Below are positions 11,715 through 55,850 of a stretch of DNA of 64,000 bases, piece by piece. The notes beneath the pieces are model-generated. The model was not told the DNA's origin. It worked only from the letters and a program-made list of their open reading frames with translations, and made no database searches. Position numbers and translations under genes: made by a program. Each line of letters opens with the position of its first letter. The stretch's first letter is position 1. This DNA is from Escherichia phage vB_EcoM_G10400. The stretch lies in sequence record MK327937.1. One strand, written 5' to 3'.

Positions 11715-11770
11715 AGCTTTATGAAAAATGCTTTAAAACTTTCATGGTATAATGAATCTAAGTCCTTCCA

Positions 11771-12373
11771 TTATAGATTAAATCCTTCAAAATCAAGAGT
11801 ATAGACAGTATATGTTGAATACTTTTTATACTCGTACCTATCCGCAATTCTAAATACGCTTCCAGCTGGTATCATTACTTCTTGTTCATCTGAAACTAAT
11901 TCCATATTACGATAGCGATGGCTATCTGGAAACTTAAAACTTGGACTATATTCTTTACAGCGTAGAGCTTTTATAGCATACTCCTGGAAATTAAACACCA
12001 TAGGAGCTTTGAATTCAAAAATAACTTGCGTGTTGTATTCTAATCCAGAAGCAAAATGTAGAGCTATATTTTTATCATATGAAGCTGATACTACTTTATC
12101 AAATGTAATAATATCAATTCCTTGATTTAATACCTGCTTAGTCTCAACTGGAACACCTCTCCAAAGAGGTTTATCGTTTGGAACCAAACGAGATTTGATT
12201 ATTTCATTTAACCAAGAATGATCGTCTGGCTTATTAGTAATACAATGAATTAAAAGTTCAATTTCGGATAAATTAAATCCTTCAGAAAGTAATTCTTCAC
12301 GAATAGAAGCACGCACCGATGCATCCATTGATTTGATTTTAAAATCTTTTAATTGCATTGCTGAATATTTCAT
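11771..12373 (-). CDS. modA: ADP-ribosyltransferase ModA
   Basis: 200 aa; R-S-ExE ART signature (LWRGV, SAS, EQEVMIP); matches T4 ModA length. Confidence 0.85.
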   Translation of the reverse strand: MKYSAMQLKDFKIKSMDASVRASIREELLSEGFNLSEIELLIHCITNKPDDHSWLNEIIKSRLVPNDKPLWRGVPVETKQVLNQGIDIITFDKVVSASYDKNIALHFASGLEYNTQVIFEFKAPMVFNFQEYAIKALRCKEYSPSFKFPDSHRYRNMELVSDEQEVMIPAGSVFRIADRYEYKKYSTYTVYTLDFEGFNL

Positions 12374-12993
12374 TCAACTACCTCAATATCATACACTTTA
12401 AATGTTCCAAATGAATCGTGTAATTTTTCTTTTGAAATAGAAGTTATTTTATACTTTCCAATTGGAATCATCCATTCTTGTTCACGCACAATCATCATTA
12501 AGTTATCAGTACGTTCTGAATCTAACCCATCAGTATCTTCATATGTATACTTAAACTCAGTATTAGGAGAAGAAAGTATAATATCGCTGATATGGTCAGA
12601 ATAATTAAAAGCTTTATCAGTTTTTAAGCGAAATATTATTTCAGTGGAATATTCAACATAAGAAAAACCACATGCTGTATACAAACTAGTAGTAAATGAA
12701 TCTACTCTGTTCGTTGAAAACACTTCTCCAACTTGTAAATCTTTAATGAGTTCTTTTGTCGATTTTGATATACCACGATATAGCTGATAAGGCGATTTAG
12801 TTAAATGCTTTTTAACGATTTTATTCAACTGCCGATGAAGAGCTTCATTCTTTTTGGCTTCCATACATTGCCAAAGAATTGACTGTTCAAAGTCAGTAAA
12901 TTTTTCACAGACCTTTTTATACATATCATATTGAAAATCGACACTTTCAGCTTTTATAGATAACTGTTCAACATCTGCGAGATTAATAATCAT
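12370..12993 (-). CDS. modB: ADP-ribosyltransferase ModB
   Basis: 207 aa from ATG 12993 with GGAGG RBS; ART motifs LYRGIS, STN, EQEWMIP; ATGA overlap with modA. Confidence 0.85.
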   Translation of the reverse strand: MIINLADVEQLSIKAESVDFQYDMYKKVCEKFTDFEQSILWQCMEAKKNEALHRQLNKIVKKHLTKSPYQLYRGISKSTKELIKDLQVGEVFSTNRVDSFTTSLYTACGFSYVEYSTEIIFRLKTDKAFNYSDHISDIILSSPNTEFKYTYEDTDGLDSERTDNLMMIVREQEWMIPIGKYKITSISKEKLHDSFGTFKVYDIEVVE

Positions 12994-13019
12994 GATAGCC
13001 TCCATATACTTCAGAAACT

Positions 13020-13049
13020 ATCATATCATTGTTAGGAAGGAAAGTAAAC
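13020..13049 (-). promoter_or_regulatory. early promoter
   Basis: minus strand gtttac + 18 nt + tatgat upstream of modB. Confidence 0.5.
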
Positions 13050-13060
13050 AACTTTTTGAA

Positions 13061-13243
13061 TTATTTTGCCCAGGGAGCCCAGGGCGGAGGGTCAAGATGG
13101 TATGAAGCTAGTTCTTCTAGAAGAGCATCTGGGGCTTCAATTCCATAATTCTGTAATACTATACGGTACTCTTTCTTATAATCACTAGAATCATTCTGGA
13201 TATTCGTAGAATGATTATCTTCTAACATCTCAAATAAATCCAT
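13061..13243 (-). CDS. hypothetical protein
   Basis: 60 aa ORF. Confidence 0.4.
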   Translation of the reverse strand: MDLFEMLEDNHSTNIQNDSSDYKKEYRIVLQNYGIEAPDALLEELASYHLDPPPWAPWAK

Positions 13244-49748: not shown

Positions 49749-50150
49749 TCACTCAATTTTACCAATTACGCGGAATAAGATTGAACAGACTATATAAGCA
49801 CCGCATATAGATTGAACTAATGCCATTCCAAAGAACCAAACAATATTATCAAACCATGTCTGTTTTACGTCGAAAGGACGTAAACTTACAGTAATATTAT
49901 CGCCTTTTTCTATTGAAGAATACATCTCCGGTGAAATATATTCACTAAATCTATAACCGTCATTTAGTTCATATACGGCAATAAACGATAAACTAGACCC
50001 CTTTCCTTGAGTTCCTGCAAGGGTATTAACTACAGTAACATCATAATCTTTATAATGCATATAATCATTAATAGCATAATAACCATATGCAATTACTATA
50101 CATAAACAACATATCAATAAATTCAATCTTTTAATTATCAACTGTTTCAT
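49749..50150 (-). CDS. hypothetical membrane protein
   Basis: 133 aa; N- and C-terminal TM segments; middle-type promoter upstream. Confidence 0.55.
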   Translation of the reverse strand: MKQLIIKRLNLLICCLCIVIAYGYYAINDYMHYKDYDVTVVNTLAGTQGKGSSLSFIAVYELNDGYRFSEYISPEMYSSIEKGDNITVSLRPFDVKQTWFDNIVWFFGMALVQSICGAYIVCSILFRVIGKIE

Positions 50151-50179
50151 AATAATCTCAATTAAAAGGGCTTAAAACC

Positions 50180-50206
50180 ATTATACCATCCTTGGTATAA
50201 AGCAGT
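50180..50206 (-). promoter_or_regulatory. middle (MotA-box) promoter candidate
   Basis: minus strand CTGCTTTA + 12 nt + TATAAT upstream of 49749..50150. Confidence 0.45.
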
Positions 50207-50733
50207 TATGCGAGTACCGTCTTTAACCGTTCTTCAAACTTCCGAAGAGTATTTTGGCGTTCAGCTCTTTGCTTTTTGTAAGTTTCAATACGCTCTGAAA
50301 TGAGAGTGTATCGTTCATTTACTGATTCTTTCATAAAATCAGGAATTTCACGAGAAGCTTTAATCTCATCAAATTTATCAATAACAGCTTGCTCTTCAGC
50401 AATTAAGTTATCATACATCAAAATATCTTTCTTGATGAACTCAATATCTTCTTGAGTTACACGAGATAATTTAGATGCTTTATCCTTTTTGTACTGTTCG
50501 TTAGTATCACGAGACCAGTGTAATATACGATTTTTATTCATATTTTTGTAAATTTCTACAATACCAATCTCATCGATAATAACGATCCAATTCCAACGAG
50601 ATTTGTAAATTTGTCCTCCATCAACAGTGATTTCACCTCCGATTGAGATGTCATTAAAGAACTTGCTTTGTGCTTCAGATTTAAATTTACCATCATTGTA
50701 GTTTACCAAGTTGAAAATATCTTTAGCATTCAT
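50206..50733 (-). CDS. hypothetical protein
   Basis: 175 aa; GGAGG RBS; early promoter upstream. Confidence 0.55.
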   Translation of the reverse strand: MNAKDIFNLVNYNDGKFKSEAQSKFFNDISIGGEITVDGGQIYKSRWNWIVIIDEIGIVEIYKNMNKNRILHWSRDTNEQYKKDKASKLSRVTQEDIEFIKKDILMYDNLIAEEQAVIDKFDEIKASREIPDFMKESVNERYTLISERIETYKKQRAERQNTLRKFEERLKTVLA

Positions 50734-50761
50734 TTTCTGTTCCTCCGTAGTTGATAGTTAT

Positions 50762-50791
50762 ATAGTACCACAGAGGAACAGTCTTGTAAAC
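50762..50791 (-). promoter_or_regulatory. early promoter
   Basis: minus strand gtttacaagactgttcctctgtggtactat. Confidence 0.55.
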
Positions 50792-50793
50792 AA

Positions 50794-51096
50794 CTAAAAG
50801 AAACTTCTTTCACAATTTTTTCCACTGAACCACGCGCTCACTGCTTTCTTAGTCTCAGGAGCGGTGTTATCCATAAACCATTCAAAGGCAGCCTTTTTAT
50901 GATTCTGGAGGGCTTCTCGGGCTTTAATCTGCTCACGGTCTATTAACACTAACATATGAGCCTTTCTTGTCACCAGGGGCTTCTTATGATTTTTTGAATA
51001 TTCCCAATCATTTGTCCAACGCATTGTCGTTGCGAACTGATGAACTGCGTCTTTAATTTTAGTTTCATAAATTTCACGAGCCTTTGAGTATAACAT
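50794..51096 (-). CDS. hypothetical protein
   Basis: 100 aa from ATG 51096 with GGAGG RBS (track start 51108). Confidence 0.5.
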   Translation of the reverse strand: MLYSKAREIYETKIKDAVHQFATTMRWTNDWEYSKNHKKPLVTRKAHMLVLIDREQIKAREALQNHKKAAFEWFMDNTAPETKKAVSAWFSGKNCERSFF

Positions 51097-51198
51097 CACT
51101 ACCTCCATTTACCAGTTTAATTCTAGTCATCTTTTTGATGGCAGTCCATATAATCTATTTCTGAACTGCCTTTTTGTCTTAGAAGTCCTCTTATGAAT

Positions 51199-52167
51199 TT
51201 ATTTCAGAAGAGTAACCTCAGCGATTTCTTCCCAACCGTTTTTGTCGGTCATAATAAAGTCAGCAAGATAAAGAGCAGTACGCAGTGAAACATTACGTAA
51301 ACGGTTAACATTGACTTTCATCCATGATAATGCTTTATAAGTTTCTTCATCAGAAAGACCGCGCTTTTGCATCATGTCGGTTGAAAGAATAACATCTTCA
51401 ACCCTGACCATAATTTCTTCATTAGTGTGAACACCCAAATCTAAATAAACTGAGCGGGACACTAATGCTTGTAAATGTGGAGCAAGTTTAGTACCACGGT
51501 CTAATTCGCGGTCAATATCAACGTTTGTGATAAAAACAATCGTTCCTTTAAATTCAAACTCACGCTCAATGCCTTTTTCTTCTAAGTAAGAAGATGCAGT
51601 GCTCCAGCAGACTTTACGGGTCTCTCCAGTGTCCAGAGCGGCTTTTAGAAGATTAAGAATGTCCATATCAGAGAAAACATCCACATCATCAATCAAAAGG
51701 ACAGAATTCTCTTCACGATTATTCCAAAGCTGCTCATAAAGACCAATGCCAGAGATTTTACCGTTAATGCTTTTATATTCAATGTATCCATTATCATTTG
51801 CTTTATTCAAAGCTTTATCTAAAGAATACGTTTTACCAATACCTGCTGCACCAGAGATAATTAATGAACGAATGTTTCCGTTAATAATACCATTCGTCAT
51901 CATTCCCATAACATTAAATCTTTTATTAATGCGGGTTTTCATATCTTCATATGATTCTTTAACTTCTTCAACTTTTACACCATCATATGAAATGTCTGAT
52001 TTGTAAACCCAAACACCGCGACGTTTACCGTCAATTTCAACAAAAACTTTACCATCTCCTTGTGCATCTACCGGAGCATTATCTGGGAACCATTCGCCTA
52101 AGAGCTCAAAAGTTCCAGAGATTTCTTTACCAAAGTAGATACCCTTATTGATAGTTACAGTTTTCAT
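51199..52167 (-). CDS. AAA+/P-loop ATPase
   Basis: 322 aa from ATG 52167 (track extension to 52284 contains terminator and promoter); Walker A GAAGIGKT, Walker B VLLIDDVD. Confidence 0.65.
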   Translation of the reverse strand: MKTVTINKGIYFGKEISGTFELLGEWFPDNAPVDAQGDGKVFVEIDGKRRGVWVYKSDISYDGVKVEEVKESYEDMKTRINKRFNVMGMMTNGIINGNIRSLIISGAAGIGKTYSLDKALNKANDNGYIEYKSINGKISGIGLYEQLWNNREENSVLLIDDVDVFSDMDILNLLKAALDTGETRKVCWSTASSYLEEKGIEREFEFKGTIVFITNVDIDRELDRGTKLAPHLQALVSRSVYLDLGVHTNEEIMVRVEDVILSTDMMQKRGLSDEETYKALSWMKVNVNRLRNVSLRTALYLADFIMTDKNGWEEIAEVTLLK

Positions 52168-52201
52168 TTTATTCTCCAAATCCGTATCAGTTGATAGTTG
52201 T

Positions 52202-52231
52202 ATAGTACCATAAAGCTTTATGCTTGTAAAC
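52202..52231 (-). promoter_or_regulatory. early promoter
   Basis: minus strand gtttacaagcataaagctttatggtactat upstream of ATPase gene. Confidence 0.55.
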
Positions 52232-52254
52232 CGTTTTGTGAAAAATTTTTGAAA

Positions 52255-52279
52255 TAAAAAGGGAGCCCGAAGGCTCCCT
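52255..52279 (-). terminator. tetraloop hairpin terminator + U-run
   Basis: gggagcccgaaggctccc with U5 on minus strand, downstream of NTase-fold gene. Confidence 0.7.
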
Positions 52280-52280
52280 A

Positions 52281-53294
52281 TCATTTATAATAACTTCGAT
52301 GGTTTTCAAGATAGACCTTCTCAAGGAAGTCATCCCAAAAACCCATGTCCACTTTTTGCTGCATACCGTTCTTAGAAGCTTCAGTAGATGCTGCTTCTAC
52401 TTGATCGACCACATCTTCCAAAAACTCTTGAACGGTTTTAAATGGATGTTTACCCAACTTCACGTCAAGAATAAATGGAGCGTCTTGAAGTGGATAAACC
52501 AAGTCGCCAGTTTTGTAAATTTCCAATAGTTGAAGTCCACCACGACAGGCATGGCTCAGAGCTTTCCAGTCAATACCTTCATTGGCTTCGGCCTTACGAG
52601 CACGTTCACCGTATTCAGCATCTAATTTGTTCAGTGACTGCTTAAGCTCAATAAGAGAAAGCGTTGTCTGATATTTACGACCCAACACTGTGTAAAACGT
52701 TTGTGGGCCTGTTTTCTCATGATTATGGAACACCCATTCACAGAATTCGTTTTCTGGAAGACGATGCTTAATATCTTCAACTTTAGTACGACGCTGCTTA
52801 ATAGAACCATCTTCTTGGTAATCAACCCATTGCTCAGGGATTTGATTAACTACTTTCAATACATCACGTAATGCAGCCAAACGAGAACCCTTGACACCGT
52901 ATTTAGAAGCTTGCTTGCGGACATATCCTAAATATGATTTCATGTTAGTCGTATAAAAACGAAAACGGTTGTCTTGAATAAACTTCCACACATCAGGCAA
53001 ATCAGATTTAACCACTAGTTCAGGTGGAGTGTGAAGCATATCCAACGCTACAGTTTCACCGTCTGCTGCTAATTTAAAGAAATATTTAAGACTGTATAGT
53101 TCATGGTCAATATCATCTTTAGTGTTTTTAGATGATGTATTGTTAGTGTTTTTACTCATATGCTCTTTGACATTTCCGATAAGAATATCGCGAGCAGGAG
53201 GAACAAAGATTTCTTTAAAATCTACATCAGATTCTGGGGTAGAAGTTCCATAAAGATGGCTACCAAAATAACTTTTCATTACTGTTTTCATCAT
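52281..53294 (-). CDS. nucleotidyltransferase-fold protein (Pol-beta-like NTase superfamily)
   Basis: 337 aa; N-terminal GS-x11-DVD motif (FGSHLYGTSTPESDVDF) plus downstream acidic DDIDHE; helical C-terminal region. Confidence 0.6.
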   Translation of the reverse strand: MMKTVMKSYFGSHLYGTSTPESDVDFKEIFVPPARDILIGNVKEHMSKNTNNTSSKNTKDDIDHELYSLKYFFKLAADGETVALDMLHTPPELVVKSDLPDVWKFIQDNRFRFYTTNMKSYLGYVRKQASKYGVKGSRLAALRDVLKVVNQIPEQWVDYQEDGSIKQRRTKVEDIKHRLPENEFCEWVFHNHEKTGPQTFYTVLGRKYQTTLSLIELKQSLNKLDAEYGERARKAEANEGIDWKALSHACRGGLQLLEIYKTGDLVYPLQDAPFILDVKLGKHPFKTVQEFLEDVVDQVEAASTEASKNGMQQKVDMGFWDDFLEKVYLENHRSYYK

Positions 53295-53752
53295 TCAGCC
53301 TCATATTCAATAACAGGACATACTTTAGCTTTACGAGCTTTTAAAAATTCAACGATAATCGATTTCTTGGGTTGAATAGGAGGTAAACCTTTATACGCTC
53401 TATCAATATTTTCTACGTGTAAAGCATAATCCTTCTTCCATTTATAATCTTTATATTTTTCACGCAAATGTGCAGGAATAACAAATGAACCGATAATAAG
53501 TAAAACAACCAAAAGCGCAAGTATAAATGCTGATGGAAGCAAAGTCCATAAACTACCGAAAATAAGCCAACGTTGTAGACTTTCTGCACAAATAATTGTT
53601 AGCCCTACGAGTATAGCACACCCAAAAATAGAAACGAAAAATGTAGGAATGGCAATAGACCAAAAATATGCGCATAGTGTCTTAGGTCGTTGCCATTCAT
53701 CGTTAAACAGTTTGAATAATTTATAGTGCCAAGAGTTTTCATTAATAATCAT
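53291..53752 (-). CDS. hypothetical membrane protein
   Basis: 153 aa; three hydrophobic segments. Confidence 0.55.
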   Translation of the reverse strand: MIINENSWHYKLFKLFNDEWQRPKTLCAYFWSIAIPTFFVSIFGCAILVGLTIICAESLQRWLIFGSLWTLLPSAFILALLVVLLIIGSFVIPAHLREKYKDYKWKKDYALHVENIDRAYKGLPPIQPKKSIIVEFLKARKAKVCPVIEYEAE

Positions 53753-53754
53753 AA

Positions 53755-54276
53755 TTATCCTTTCATTGAAGGCGTAACGGTTGTTAAATACTTAATCATA
53801 GCTTCAGCTTCTGATTTTGATAATGAAATTTCTCCATTGTTTTGACGAATAGAAATAAAATCCGGATGACGGTCACCACCAGCTTTTAAAACACACATAT
53901 AAGTATCAGCTTCGCCTTCAATATTTGAAATGATTGAAGCAGTTCCACATGAATGTGGTTTTTGATAAATCAATACAGCTTTTCTTCCACCGTTTGATTG
54001 TTCATAGGCTTTTAATACATCAAGCAAATCAGTTCTTTTATCAATAGCTAAGATGTTATTTTCATCTTCAATGTTAAATCCTTCGGATACTTCATAAAGC
54101 GTTACCCATAAATCACCAATGTCAATAACAGCATTTACTTTTCCACGGCTTTCAAGAGTATGACAAATTTTCTTGATTTCGTCATAACTCATTTTAATAA
54201 TATCATCTCCTTGAATAAGGAAGATGTCATTTTTAAATTCAACACGAATTAAACCGCTTCCACTTGAAATAAACAT
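53755..54276 (-). CDS. hypothetical protein, tandem paralog of 54283..54840
   Basis: 173 aa; C-terminus SKSEAEAMIKYLTTVTP similar to next ORF. Confidence 0.55.
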   Translation of the reverse strand: MFISSGSGLIRVEFKNDIFLIQGDDIIKMSYDEIKKICHTLESRGKVNAVIDIGDLWVTLYEVSEGFNIEDENNILAIDKRTDLLDVLKAYEQSNGGRKAVLIYQKPHSCGTASIISNIEGEADTYMCVLKAGGDRHPDFISIRQNNGEISLSKSEAEAMIKYLTTVTPSMKG

Positions 54277-54282
54277 ATTTCC

Positions 54283-54840
54283 TCACTTTGAAATCATAGT
54301 TGGAATAACAGAATCAAGATAAGTCTTTAGTGCAATAGCTTCGTCTTTGGTAAATGTGACAATATGTGCTCGAGAATCATCAATTTGGCGAATAGTTAAG
54401 ACATCTCCATCTTCATAACATTTTGATACGTTTAAAACAGTTTCATCATTCTGGTTGCAAGCGTTAGTAATAATAGCATTGCAATTTTTGAGCCATTTTA
54501 AACTGTGTTTTCTTTCATTAGAATAATAAAAATATTTAATCTTAGTTATAAAGCTATCCCAATGGATAACTGATAAACACATTGACTCACTTTTAATATT
54601 AAATCCTGGGCATGAAGAATAAAAATGAATTTTGTGCTCATCATTGATGCTTACTATTTTATCAGTATAAGGATATTCAATTTGGGTTAAATGAATGATT
54701 TCACTAGGCGTAAAATATAGCATATCGTCTTCTTGCGTCAAACGATACATGTTATTTACTTTTTCTATAGCCAATTCACCAAAAAGCGGACTAACTTCTA
54801 ATACTAATCGTTTCATATTGATTCTCTTCGACTCACTCAC
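54283..54840 (-). CDS. hypothetical protein, tandem paralog of 53755..54276
   Basis: 185 aa; GTG start with AGGAG RBS (or ATG at 54816); C-terminus TKDEAIALKTYLDSVIP. Confidence 0.55.
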   Translation of the reverse strand: MSESKRINMKRLVLEVSPLFGELAIEKVNNMYRLTQEDDMLYFTPSEIIHLTQIEYPYTDKIVSINDEHKIHFYSSCPGFNIKSESMCLSVIHWDSFITKIKYFYYSNERKHSLKWLKNCNAIITNACNQNDETVLNVSKCYEDGDVLTIRQIDDSRAHIVTFTKDEAIALKTYLDSVIPTMISK

Positions 54841-55826: not shown

Positions 55827-55850
55827 GAAAAAAGTCTCCCGAAGGAGACT
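55827..55850 (-). terminator. tetraloop hairpin terminator + U-run
   Basis: agtctcccgaaggagact with U6 on minus strand. Confidence 0.7.

Follow-up and report, generated by a model that had tools for sequence, protein, structure and literature searches.

The textbook example of a phage that reverses the damage of a host suicide nuclease is T4, whose polynucleotide kinase and RNA ligase 1 repair cleaved tRNA, and RloC is thought to beat this repair by removing the wobble nucleotide too. Restoration of the lost nucleotide has already been suggested (Burroughs and Aravind 2016, as cited in PMC7824862), and the same idea is found in a 2025 preprint on the RlaP nucleotidyltransferases (NTases), where Pseudomonas RlaP added one or two NMPs to the 3'-OH of RNA, acted on neither DNA nor protein, preferred Mn2+ and partly rescued the aminoacylation of a tRNA from which one nucleotide was missing (bioRxiv 10.64898/2025.12.29.696909). 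In the sequence network of that work the assayed enzymes belong to cluster 1a, and the T4 protein NrdC.11 is named as a member of cluster 5. In jumbo phages, moreover, the distribution of RlaP mirrors that of RNA ligases (PMC7824862). Among solved structures, the nearest to the NTase described here is HalB (PDB 9dbh, 9dbj) of the Hailong system, which makes DNA oligomers and is not an RNA-end enzyme.

We analysed 64 kb of Escherichia phage vB_EcoM_G10400, a T4/T2-like phage (this whole stretch is the window below), and concentrated on positions 51199-53294, which have 97% DNA identity to many Tequatrovirus genomes. The NTase and ATPase genes of this region agree with the T4 early genes nrdC.11 and nrdC.10 in order, in strand and in the layout of the gap between them, and their products are 98% identical to NrdC.11 (NP_049709) and 99% identical to NrdC.10 (NP_049708), respectively. 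The features of the region are:

51199..52167, minus strand: nrdC.10-type gene, 322-aa AAA+ ATPase, phrog_1250
52202..52230, minus strand: T4-early-type promoter-like site for nrdC.10 (TTTACA, 17-nt spacer, TACTAT, extended -10 TG)
52260..52279, minus strand: intrinsic-terminator-like hairpin with an 8-bp G+C-rich stem, UUCG loop and T-run
52281..53294, minus strand: nrdC.11-type gene, 337-aa long-form RlaP-family (PF10127) Pol-beta nucleotidyltransferase
53291..53752, minus strand: 153-aa membrane protein gene (phrog_944), stop overlapping the NTase start by 4 nt

The reading that we prefer, at a probability of roughly 60%, is that the NTase is a long-form RlaP which carries out untemplated addition to RNA 3' ends for tRNA repair, and that the ATPase is an independent AAA+ protein of DNA metabolism.

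The nrdC.11-type nucleotidyltransferase

An earlier note on this DNA had described a 337-aa ORF at 53294..52281 (minus strand) as a Pol-beta-type NTase, and this was borne out. The protein matches Pfam PF10127 with 45 bits (E 1.4e-11; gathering cut-off 23 bits) over profile positions 23-142 of 249, its AlphaFold2 model has a pLDDT of 91.7, the N-terminal domain adopts the NTase fold, and the closest structural neighbours in the fold search were all NTases. The motif was also found as G11-S12, D23-V24-D25 and a downstream D61-I62-D63, only with the spacing G-S-x10-D-V-D in place of the x11 given earlier. All 127 homologues (23-88% identity) retain G11, S12, D23 and D25, and conservation at D61 and D63 is 90% or higher. 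Position 61 is N in the T4 reference and D in vB_EcoM_G10400; we therefore took D63 as the third carboxylate, which gives G11-S12, D23, D25 and D63 as the catalytic residues by motif. The 337-aa ORF encodes a nucleotidyltransferase of the Pol-beta fold whose acidic triad is intact.

The remainder of the model consists of a beta-rich insert at about residues 155-209 and a C-terminal helical half, which ends in a long final helix and carries the conserved basic residues R231, K244, H248 and R251. The view of this part as an otherwise unassigned helical body had to be given up, since the protein was already assigned in Pfam, PHROGs and RefSeq: precomputed annotation places PF10127 on nearly all of the NTase homologues, and in PHROGs the protein falls into phrog_388, named 'nucleotidyltransferase'. 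Nor does 'uncharacterised' fit a named family with bacterial members assayed in vitro and with T4 NrdC.11 cited by name. A literature search on name variants of nrdC.10 and nrdC.11 found no functional study of either T4 protein, and thus no T4 homologue with an unrelated function, a possibility that had been raised. The nrdC.11-mobD.3 segment is dispensable in a laboratory host (CRISPR genome-reduction study, PMC9825161), which fits an accessory role and is uninformative on function.

In profile-profile comparison (hhalign), the long NTase aligned with canonical short RlaP at 96.6% probability (E 6.6e-10), and D63 was placed on the invariant D88 of the short form. This alignment stops near residue 130, and the C-terminal ~200 residues are specific to the long form. 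As only the first ~130 residues are shared with the assayed short RlaP, the substrate and the product of the long form could differ. NrdC.11 is a distinct long form, a separate branch of RlaP, and this distinction is new here. Judged from its sequence, the NTase is orthologous to T4 NrdC.11 and a long-form member of the RlaP family, with a catalytic role predicted from that family. Searches of the PDB copy used here with single sequences and with profiles (long NTase, short RlaP and ATPase) returned nothing meaningful and no RlaP structure, the PfRlaP crystal structure included.

RNA-repair neighbours and the proposed reaction

The genomic context was examined around the 80 closest cellular homologues of the NTase (33-53% identity, full length). 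In 24 of these loci the next gene downstream of the long NTase encodes a full-length short RlaP (PF10127), and in 17 RtcB, RtcA, Pnkp or Hen1 is encoded within 6 kb; 46 of the 80, many of them on short contigs, have no recognised RNA-repair neighbour. On a Nitrosospira contig the order is RtcB-RtcA-long NTase-short RlaP-Hen1, and in Asticcacaulis it is Hen1-Pnkp-long NTase-short RlaP. The adjacency of the long and short forms in bacteria suggests that they are not redundant.

In phages, Pnkp, Rnl1 or RtcB lies within 10 kb of the NTase in six divergent loci. Across 50,697 phage records, the NTase and T4 Rnl1 were counted almost equally often by host genus (Escherichia 640/638, Klebsiella 286/287, Shigella 83/83, Acinetobacter 69/69 and Enterobacter 56/56), which may simply reflect that both are nearly universal in one virus family. 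In T4-like genomes nrdC.11 does not adjoin pseT or rnlA; no RNA-repair gene besides the NTase was found within the window, and no RNA elements turned up when the whole window was scanned with Rfam models and for tRNAs. A search for conserved neighbours of the NTase in phages found none, the nearby genes being as different as UvrD helicase, primase-helicase, DNA polymerase A, NAD-salvage genes and Band 7.

Both genes are real and the NTase family is already known; the function of the NTase in T4 is a prediction from the family. In the proposed reaction, D23, D25 and D63 would hold two metal ions that activate the 3'-OH of a broken RNA, and one or two nucleotides would be added free of a template, with R231, K244, H248 and R251 of the C-terminal helical half probably binding the NTP or the RNA end. 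The likely substrate would be the 5' half of a tRNA that has been cut and then trimmed by a host anticodon nuclease in the manner of RloC, after which PseT (the polynucleotide kinase/phosphatase) and RNA ligase 1 of the phage could rebuild an anticodon loop of full length. The NTase gene would be co-transcribed with its upstream genes, and the transcript would end at the hairpin at 52279..52260. If NrdC.11 does restore the lost nucleotide, it would be a putative third component of the repair in nearly every T4-like phage.

The gap between the genes and the AAA+ ATPase

The hairpin (AGGGAGCC-UUCG-GGCUCCCU, then the T-run, at 52279..52260) begins one base past the NTase stop codon. Its free energy is -18.4 kcal/mol, with z = -4.1 against shuffles, none of 200 of which folded as well. 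Thus the terminator that the earlier note had placed between the genes was recovered, and so was its fresh early promoter, as a promoter-like site at 52230..52202 that is a consensus match only, of a kind no more frequent in this AT-rich stretch than in shuffled sequence. Upstream of nrdC.8, at 50790..50762, the identical pair of hexamers is seen again. Downstream of the promoter-like site at 52230..52202 come a ribosome-binding site, GGAG, and then the start codon (ATG at 52167). A 361-aa variant of the ATPase ORF starting at 52284 was rejected as spurious, as its extension crosses both the terminator and the promoter. The gap between nrdC.11 and nrdC.10 is 113 nt in vB_EcoM_G10400 and 114 nt in T4. 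With a terminator and a separate promoter-like site between the NTase and ATPase genes, the heading 'one early transcription unit' contradicts the description that was given beneath it, and it was not retained.

For the 322-aa protein, the two Walker motifs described earlier were confirmed: Walker A (G106-AAGIG-K112-T) and Walker B (LLID160-D161-VD) are invariant in 57 homologues. Residues 1-62 of the protein form an N-terminal beta domain, followed by the AAA+ core and a lid of helices, and further motifs are sensor 1 N215, the arginine R238 in 'SRS', and the lid arginines R291 and R296. It thus carries what defines an AAA+ protein, namely Walker A/B, sensor 1, an arginine finger and an alpha-beta-alpha core with a helical lid. 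The signals for its clade diverge. The motifs point to the clamp-loader SRC, which the R238 'SRS' motif resembles, and to sensor 2, whereas the fold ranking points to MoxR and NtrC types; the nearest solved folds are those of MoxR-type NorQ and CbbQ, sigma-54 activators, MCM, DnaA/ORC and RFC. Between helix 168-178 and strand 209-214 there is an insert, at the position where a pre-sensor-1 hairpin would lie. That NrdC.10 might be the MoxR-type ATPase seen in bacterial RNA-repair operons was also considered and rejected, since the profile match is generic and such a gene was present in only 2 of the 80 loci.

In distant phages, 21 of 60 loci have a UvsW-like SF2 DNA helicase ~0.5 kb downstream of the ATPase. 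UvsY-like and UvsX-like genes are found nearby, and in Roseobacter phage RDJL6 the ATPase belongs to the replication module. The NrdC.10 orthologue is predicted to be an independent AAA+ ATPase with the full set of catalytic motifs and a putative promoter of its own. Its gene neighbourhood makes a remodeller or loader in DNA metabolism the most likely role. The ATPase gene should not be read as a partner of the NTase, and the company of a UvsW-like helicase, UvsY and UvsX points to DNA recombination.

Alternative readings and comparison with known systems

The NTase and the ATPase had been proposed as a pair, and they could in principle form one two-component enzymatic system, with the ATPase in substrate loading or remodelling, or with both in a nucleotide-signal or anti-defence module. 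The gene-neighbourhood survey did not sustain this: the ATPase was found within 10 kb in 37 of 84 NTase-centred loci and was absent from the other 47, and the NTase was found within 10 kb in 9 of 69 ATPase-centred loci and was absent from 60. Both genes are present in 44RR2.8t and VH7D at a distance of 50-100 kb, and no relative of NrdC.10 was found in the 80 cellular NTase loci. Besides the terminator and the separate promoter-like site, the gap varies between 112 and 2290 bp and contains other genes, for example a ModA-like ADP-ribosyltransferase in T2, so that the combination of co-transcription and conserved co-occurrence that would mark a two-gene operon was not found. Elsewhere the two genes keep different conserved neighbours, and the likeness of NrdC.10 to the AAA_5 protein of the repair operons is generic (56% probability over the P-loop core). 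Because gene order is broadly conserved among T4-like genomes, adjacency alone is weak evidence, and because the ATPase stands beside DNA-recombination genes in other phages, the two would be neighbours through gene order only. Functional coupling is not supported, the adjacency being inherited gene order. PADLOC defence-system models gave no matches, and neither CD-NTase/CBASS models or folds with an adjoining effector or Cap gene nor any CD-NTase among the fold matches was seen, which also argues against the nucleotide-signal idea advanced earlier. We regard a two-component system as very improbable, and a CBASS-like or Thoeris-like interpretation of the nrdC.11/nrdC.10 locus is not worth pursuing. 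The nearness of HalB in the fold search leads to another reading, in which the NTase makes free or protein-primed oligonucleotides, either paired with the upstream membrane protein or as a phage decoy that holds a host HalA channel shut. The membrane gene reported upstream is indeed there, as a 153-aa gene with a 4-nt overlap and two predicted transmembrane segments. It is a lineage-specific neighbour of the NTase and not a conserved partner: confined to close relatives, it is accompanied in vB_EcoM_G10400 by two y05I-like genes, whereas the homing endonuclease mobD takes this place in T4 and unrelated soluble proteins do so in other genera (upstream-gene survey). The membrane protein and NTase as a Hailong-like pair were rejected, since the upstream gene switches between lineages. 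A priming tyrosine of HalB was reportedly described by Tan et al. in 2025; in the NTase, Y335 and Y336 occur only in the T4 group, and Y328, which is conserved in part, belongs to the hydrophobic side of the final helix. Furthermore, neither the long nor the short RlaP profile reaches HalB in the PDB, and the cellular homologues lie in RNA-repair operons and not beside channel genes. We thus give a HalB-like activity very little credence, and find it slightly harder still to believe that the NTase is a functional relative of HalB whose oligonucleotide decoy replaces the inhibitory DNA signal lost to phage exonucleases, so that HalA stays closed.

Other readings keep the NTase chemistry and change its target. 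The long form could act on other RNA 3' ends, either rebuilding the CCA of the tRNA acceptor or tailing host or phage RNAs and thereby altering their stability. Such breadth is suggested by the assayed short RlaP, which labels rRNA-sized as well as tRNA-sized species with little NTP specificity, and by the C-terminal domain that the long form has of its own; the tandem of long and short forms likewise suggests a division of labour. However, the operon partners are a ligase and end-healing enzymes for internal breaks, nothing that we found points to tailing, and E. coli has its own CCA-adding enzyme, which counts against the CCA end. We consider this reading unlikely. That the NTase modifies a protein, as do DrrA, GlnE and the MNT antitoxins, or a small molecule, as do aminoglycoside NTases, is decidedly improbable: such matches were obtained, but they are weaker than those to HalB and 3c18 and are explained by the shared Pol-beta core. 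NCBIfam returned only sub-threshold matches, to MntA and Hda, that to MntA scoring 13 bits against a cut-off of 60 bits, and MntA-type models with an adjacent HEPN toxin, as in MNT/type VII toxin-antitoxin systems, were not found. Moreover, the biochemistry of the family indicates RNA as the substrate, not protein or DNA, and the operon context is one of RNA repair. Addition to broken tRNA remains the reading that we prefer.

Comparison with the known systems places the NTase as follows. Kanamycin nucleotidyltransferase ANT(4') and related antibiotic NTases (1kny, 6nmk) share its two-domain layout, with a helical bundle placed after the Pol-beta domain. HalB has 217 residues, against 337 here, makes oligodeoxyadenylate (oligo-dA) and works with the HalA channel, whereas the NTase has no detectable sequence relationship to it, no conserved HalA-type channel partner and no conserved C-terminal priming tyrosine. 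PfRlaP and PaRlaP of Pseudomonas share with it the Pol-beta domain hG[GS]...DxD...D and apparently the overall arrangement of an N-terminal NTase and a C-terminal helical domain, and the RlaP family (PF10127), whose network includes NrdC.11, has ties to RNA ligase and end-healing genes; the long form exceeds the short RlaP by 60-80 residues and contains a beta-rich insert. Our addition to this picture is a modest one, namely that in bacterial operons with RtcB or with Pnkp/Hen1 the T4-type long branch is found as a pair with short RlaP. Long RlaP may be a distinct enzyme that acts beside the short form in these operons, and would in that case be the third component that lets T4 Pnkp-Rnl1 reverse excision of the RloC type.

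Layout of the nrdC.11–nrdC.10 region

The two reading frames examined are real, because they are 98% and 99% identical to T4 NrdC.11 (the nucleotidyltransferase, NTase) and NrdC.10 (the ATPase), respectively. All genes of the region lie on the minus strand, the G+C content of the window is 32-37%, and the DNA at 50000-54500 is 97% identical to hundreds of Tequatrovirus (T4/T2-like) genomes.

Features of the region
53752..53291, minus: membrane protein gene, 153 aa
53294..52281, minus: NTase ORF, 337 aa
52279..52260, minus: predicted terminator, a G+C-rich hairpin with UUCG loop and T-run (-18.4 kcal/mol, z -4.1)
52230..52202, minus: promoter-like site, TTTACA-17-TACTAT with extended -10 TG
52167..51199, minus: ATPase ORF, 322 aa, preceded by a GGAG ribosome-binding site

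The ATG of the NTase overlaps the stop codon of the preceding membrane protein gene by 4 nt. The earlier note had placed NTase and ATPase in one transcription unit; due to the terminator and promoter that separate the two genes, they are not one unit. Its sequence features were confirmed with three corrections and its fold calls, NTase and AAA+, were right; the NTase motif is present, with the spacing G-S-x10-D-V-D instead of x11. The longest ATPase ORF (361 aa, ATG at 52284; 51199-52284, minus) crosses both terminator and promoter and is a spurious extension. An over-extended start is repeated in public gene calls, in which one cluster representative (P0121) has 377 aa.

The spacer between nrdC.11 and nrdC.10 is only 113 nt and holds terminator and promoter without inserted genes, whereas T2 (PV958097, locus L001:6290-6906) has a small ORF there and a ModA-like gene of 161 aa, labelled ‘RNA polymerase ADP-ribosylase’. 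Upstream of the membrane gene, two neighbouring paralogues of 173 and 185 aa (53755-54276 and 54283-54840, minus) each gave Pfam matches to the N- and C-terminal domains of the y05I-like ‘putative transcription factor’ (PF24449, PF24448); T4 has mobD and mobD.1 at this place. The promoter-like pattern preceding nrdC.10 (TTTACA, 17-nt spacer, TACTAT and TG) has a second copy at 50762-50790 (minus), preceding nrdC.8, and another UUCG-loop terminator-like hairpin lies at 55850..55833. No RNA family (Rfam, gathering thresholds) and no tRNA (ARAGORN) was found across 1-64000, nor was a group I intron detected in the window; in the T4 reference, nrdD contains such an intron, with I-TevII. Public annotation is noisy: many GenBank records label NrdC.10, NrdC.11 and their neighbours ‘thioredoxin’, inherited from the gene name nrdC.x, RefSeq labels a mobD.x gene ‘molybdopterin-guanine dinucleotide biosynthesis protein MobD’, and one record labels NrdC.11 ‘HNH homing endonuclease’.

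NrdC.11 as a long form of RlaP

As T4 NrdC.11, the NTase had been catalogued in the RlaP family before. It scored 45 bits (cut-off 23 bits) against PF10127 (RlaP, ‘RNA repair pathway DNA polymerase beta family’) and matched phrog_388 ‘nucleotidyltransferase’ with E 6e-136, and RefSeq already labels the T4 and T2 genes ‘nucleotidyltransferase’. The family proved large in an exhaustive phmmer search: 3356 cluster representatives reached E ≤1e-3, 822 of them E ≤1e-30. Among 127 aligned homologues (23-88% identity), G11, S12, G16, S22, D23, D25, Q128, G136, G229, R231, K244, H248, R251 and P268 were invariant, and D61 and D63 were at least 90% conserved. Position 61 is N in the T4 reference, thus D63 is the third carboxylate; it aligned with D88, which is invariant in canonical RlaP. 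The AlphaFold2 model (pLDDT 91.7) has three parts, i.e. an N-terminal alpha/beta NTase domain, a beta-rich insert at ∼155-209 and a C-terminal helical half ending in a long helix, and its structural matches include kanamycin, streptomycin and lincosamide NTases as well as DrrA and GlnE.

Both the Pfam match and the profile-profile alignment to the canonical short RlaP (96.6% probability, E 6.6e-10) end near residue 130; judged by sequence, NrdC.11 is a long RlaP form in its own right. When prokaryotes were scanned, each species being represented by one genome, 219 relatives were found and the best 80 examined; these are full length, 33-53% identical, and belong to Desulfobacterales, Nitrospirota, Alphaproteobacteria and some archaea. 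In 24 of the 80 loci (6-kb flanks), the next gene 3′ of the long form, on the same strand, encodes a full-length short RlaP of PF10127 (250-280 aa; E 1e-51 to 1e-67), frequently with a 4-nt overlap. The long member of such pairs has ∼320 aa, and RtcB/RtcA or Hen1/Pnkp genes flank them (e.g. cellular loci L122:3712-13336, L138:2088-7802, L153 and L163). Moreover, RtcB, RtcA, Pnkp or Hen1 lay within 6 kb in 17/80 loci, and some RNA-repair gene was present in 22 of the 41 loci whose flanks reach 5 kb or more on each side. The gene order is RtcB-RtcA-long NTase-short RlaP-Hen1-AAA_5-(601 aa)-Pnkp in Nitrosospira and Hen1-Pnkp-long NTase-short RlaP in Asticcacaulis. Oversized long-form NTase ORFs at cellular loci L150, L163, L129 and L159 (761, 501, 448 and 404 aa) suggest fusions or extensions.

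Neighbours of NTase and ATPase

The two genes are not coupled, and the proposal of an uncharacterised two-enzyme system found no support. The ATPase was found within 10 kb in 37 of 84 NTase-centred loci, always 3′ on the same strand, at a variable spacing of 112-2290 bp with other ORFs between, and in no phage locus where NTase identity was <50%. Conversely, the NTase occurred in 9 of 69 ATPase-centred loci, all nine being the closest relatives. No ATPase lay within 8 kb of the NTase in Slopekvirus KP15, Aeromonas 44RR2.8t or Vibrio VH7D; the latter two carry both genes 50-100 kb apart. Counts per host genus also differ (ATPase versus NTase: Klebsiella 149 versus 286, Vibrio 121 versus 59, Aeromonas 48 versus 75), and an NrdC.10 relative was absent from all cellular NTase loci. 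We rejected NrdC.10 as the MoxR-like AAA_5 of bacterial RNA-repair operons (2/80 loci only; generic profile match, 56% probability).

NrdC.10 is an independent AAA+ protein which, by its neighbourhood alone, is probably tied to DNA metabolism (replication, recombination or repair). Its model (pLDDT 89.6) comprises a beta domain (1-62), a long helix, an AAA+ core and a helical lid. Walker A (G106-AAGIG-K112-T) and the Walker B pair D160-D161 are invariant, as are N215, which ends strand 4 at the sensor 1 position, the lid arginines R291 and R296, and R238 within ‘ALVSRS’, a motif similar to the clamp-loader SRC motif. An insert, flanked by helix 168-178 and strand 209-214, occupies the place expected for a pre-sensor-1 hairpin. 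In 21 of 60 distant viral loci (L182-L241; e.g. L197:10001-12591), an SF2 DNA helicase (ResIII/DEAD/Helicase_C, phrog_16) lay ∼0.5 kb 3′ of the ATPase, and UvsY-like, UvsX-like and ribonucleotide reductase genes were also near; this gene context suggests a link of phrog_1250, the ATPase family, to recombination. The ATPase is flanked by exonuclease and DNA polymerase A in Roseobacter siphophage RDJL6, by ribonucleotide reductase and topoisomerase genes in Vibrio V05, and lies near denV in phiA8-29 and 121Q.

For the NTase, no constant neighbour was found among T4-like genomes. The translationally coupled 5′ gene varies: close relatives have the membrane protein gene and T4 has mobD, whereas elsewhere the products are unrelated soluble proteins. 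Genes in the vicinity include those for UvrD helicase, primase-helicase, DNA polymerase A and NAD-salvage enzymes. In T4-like phages of Aeromonas, Klebsiella (KP15) and Vibrio, a few kb separate the NTase from genes for NAD salvage (NMN adenylyltransferase/Nudix, nicotinamide phosphoribosyltransferase, PRPP-synthetase-like; phage loci L004:6013-7071 and 11769-13223, L006:5099-6160, L003:13943-14968, L071:11238-14015), which may be mere shared gene order. Pnkp, Rnl1 or RtcB lay within 10 kb in six divergent phage loci. Over 50,697 phage records, NTase and T4 RNA ligase 1 (Rnl1) counts per host genus were almost equal, and Pnkp was more widely distributed than both; the match fits functional cooperation but is confounded by common ancestry in one virus family.

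NTase and Rnl1 counts per host genus (NTase; Rnl1)
Escherichia: 640; 638
Klebsiella: 286; 287
Shigella: 83; 83
Aeromonas: 75; 77
Acinetobacter: 69; 69
Enterobacter: 56; 56
Vibrio: 59; 54

Proposed role of NrdC.11

The most likely job of NrdC.11 would be to mend trimmed tRNA ends, without a template, before they are ligated; we assign this a probability of about 0.6. The fold would also permit nucleotidylation of a protein or small molecule, which family biochemistry and operon context contradict. Since the C-terminal half is peculiar to the long form, NrdC.11 might instead act on another RNA 3′ end, e.g. the acceptor end, or at another step than the short form. That the model resembles HalB, the NTase of the Hailong anti-phage system, and that the membrane gene overlaps the NTase start could indicate a Hailong-like pair or an anti-Hailong decoy; we consider this very improbable, as the membrane gene is confined to one lineage, a sequence relationship to HalB is undetectable and the terminal tyrosines are not conserved. 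CD-NTase-type signalling, also raised before, found no support in PADLOC or fold matches.

Untemplated end repair agrees with the preprint of Carruthers, Fatma and Huang (December 2025; bioRxiv 10.64898/2025.12.29.696909), in which RlaP from two Pseudomonas species, preferring Mn2+, added 1-2 NMP (or dNMP) to RNA 3′-OH, with DNA and protein not being substrates and the 5′ half of a cleaved-tRNA mimic preferred. It partly recovered aminoacylation of a tRNA lacking one anticodon-loop nucleotide, and the authors proposed RlaP as an antidote to nucleases (e.g. RloC) that cut and then trim tRNA. In their similarity network, ‘T4NrdC.11’ falls in cluster 5, where they label it an RlaP of unknown function. 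Iyer et al. (2021; PMC7824862) described RlaP as the commonest such NTase in jumbo phages, with a distribution mirroring RNA ligases. Thus, family assignment and proposed role had already been published. The nrdC.11-mobD.3 segment is dispensable in the laboratory, according to a genome-reduction study (PMC9825161). The long-short tandem is not mentioned in the RlaP preprint, to which our comparison on this point was confined. Two side observations are added here: such tandems occur in repair operons of bacteria, and phrog_1250 is associated with UvsW-like helicases.
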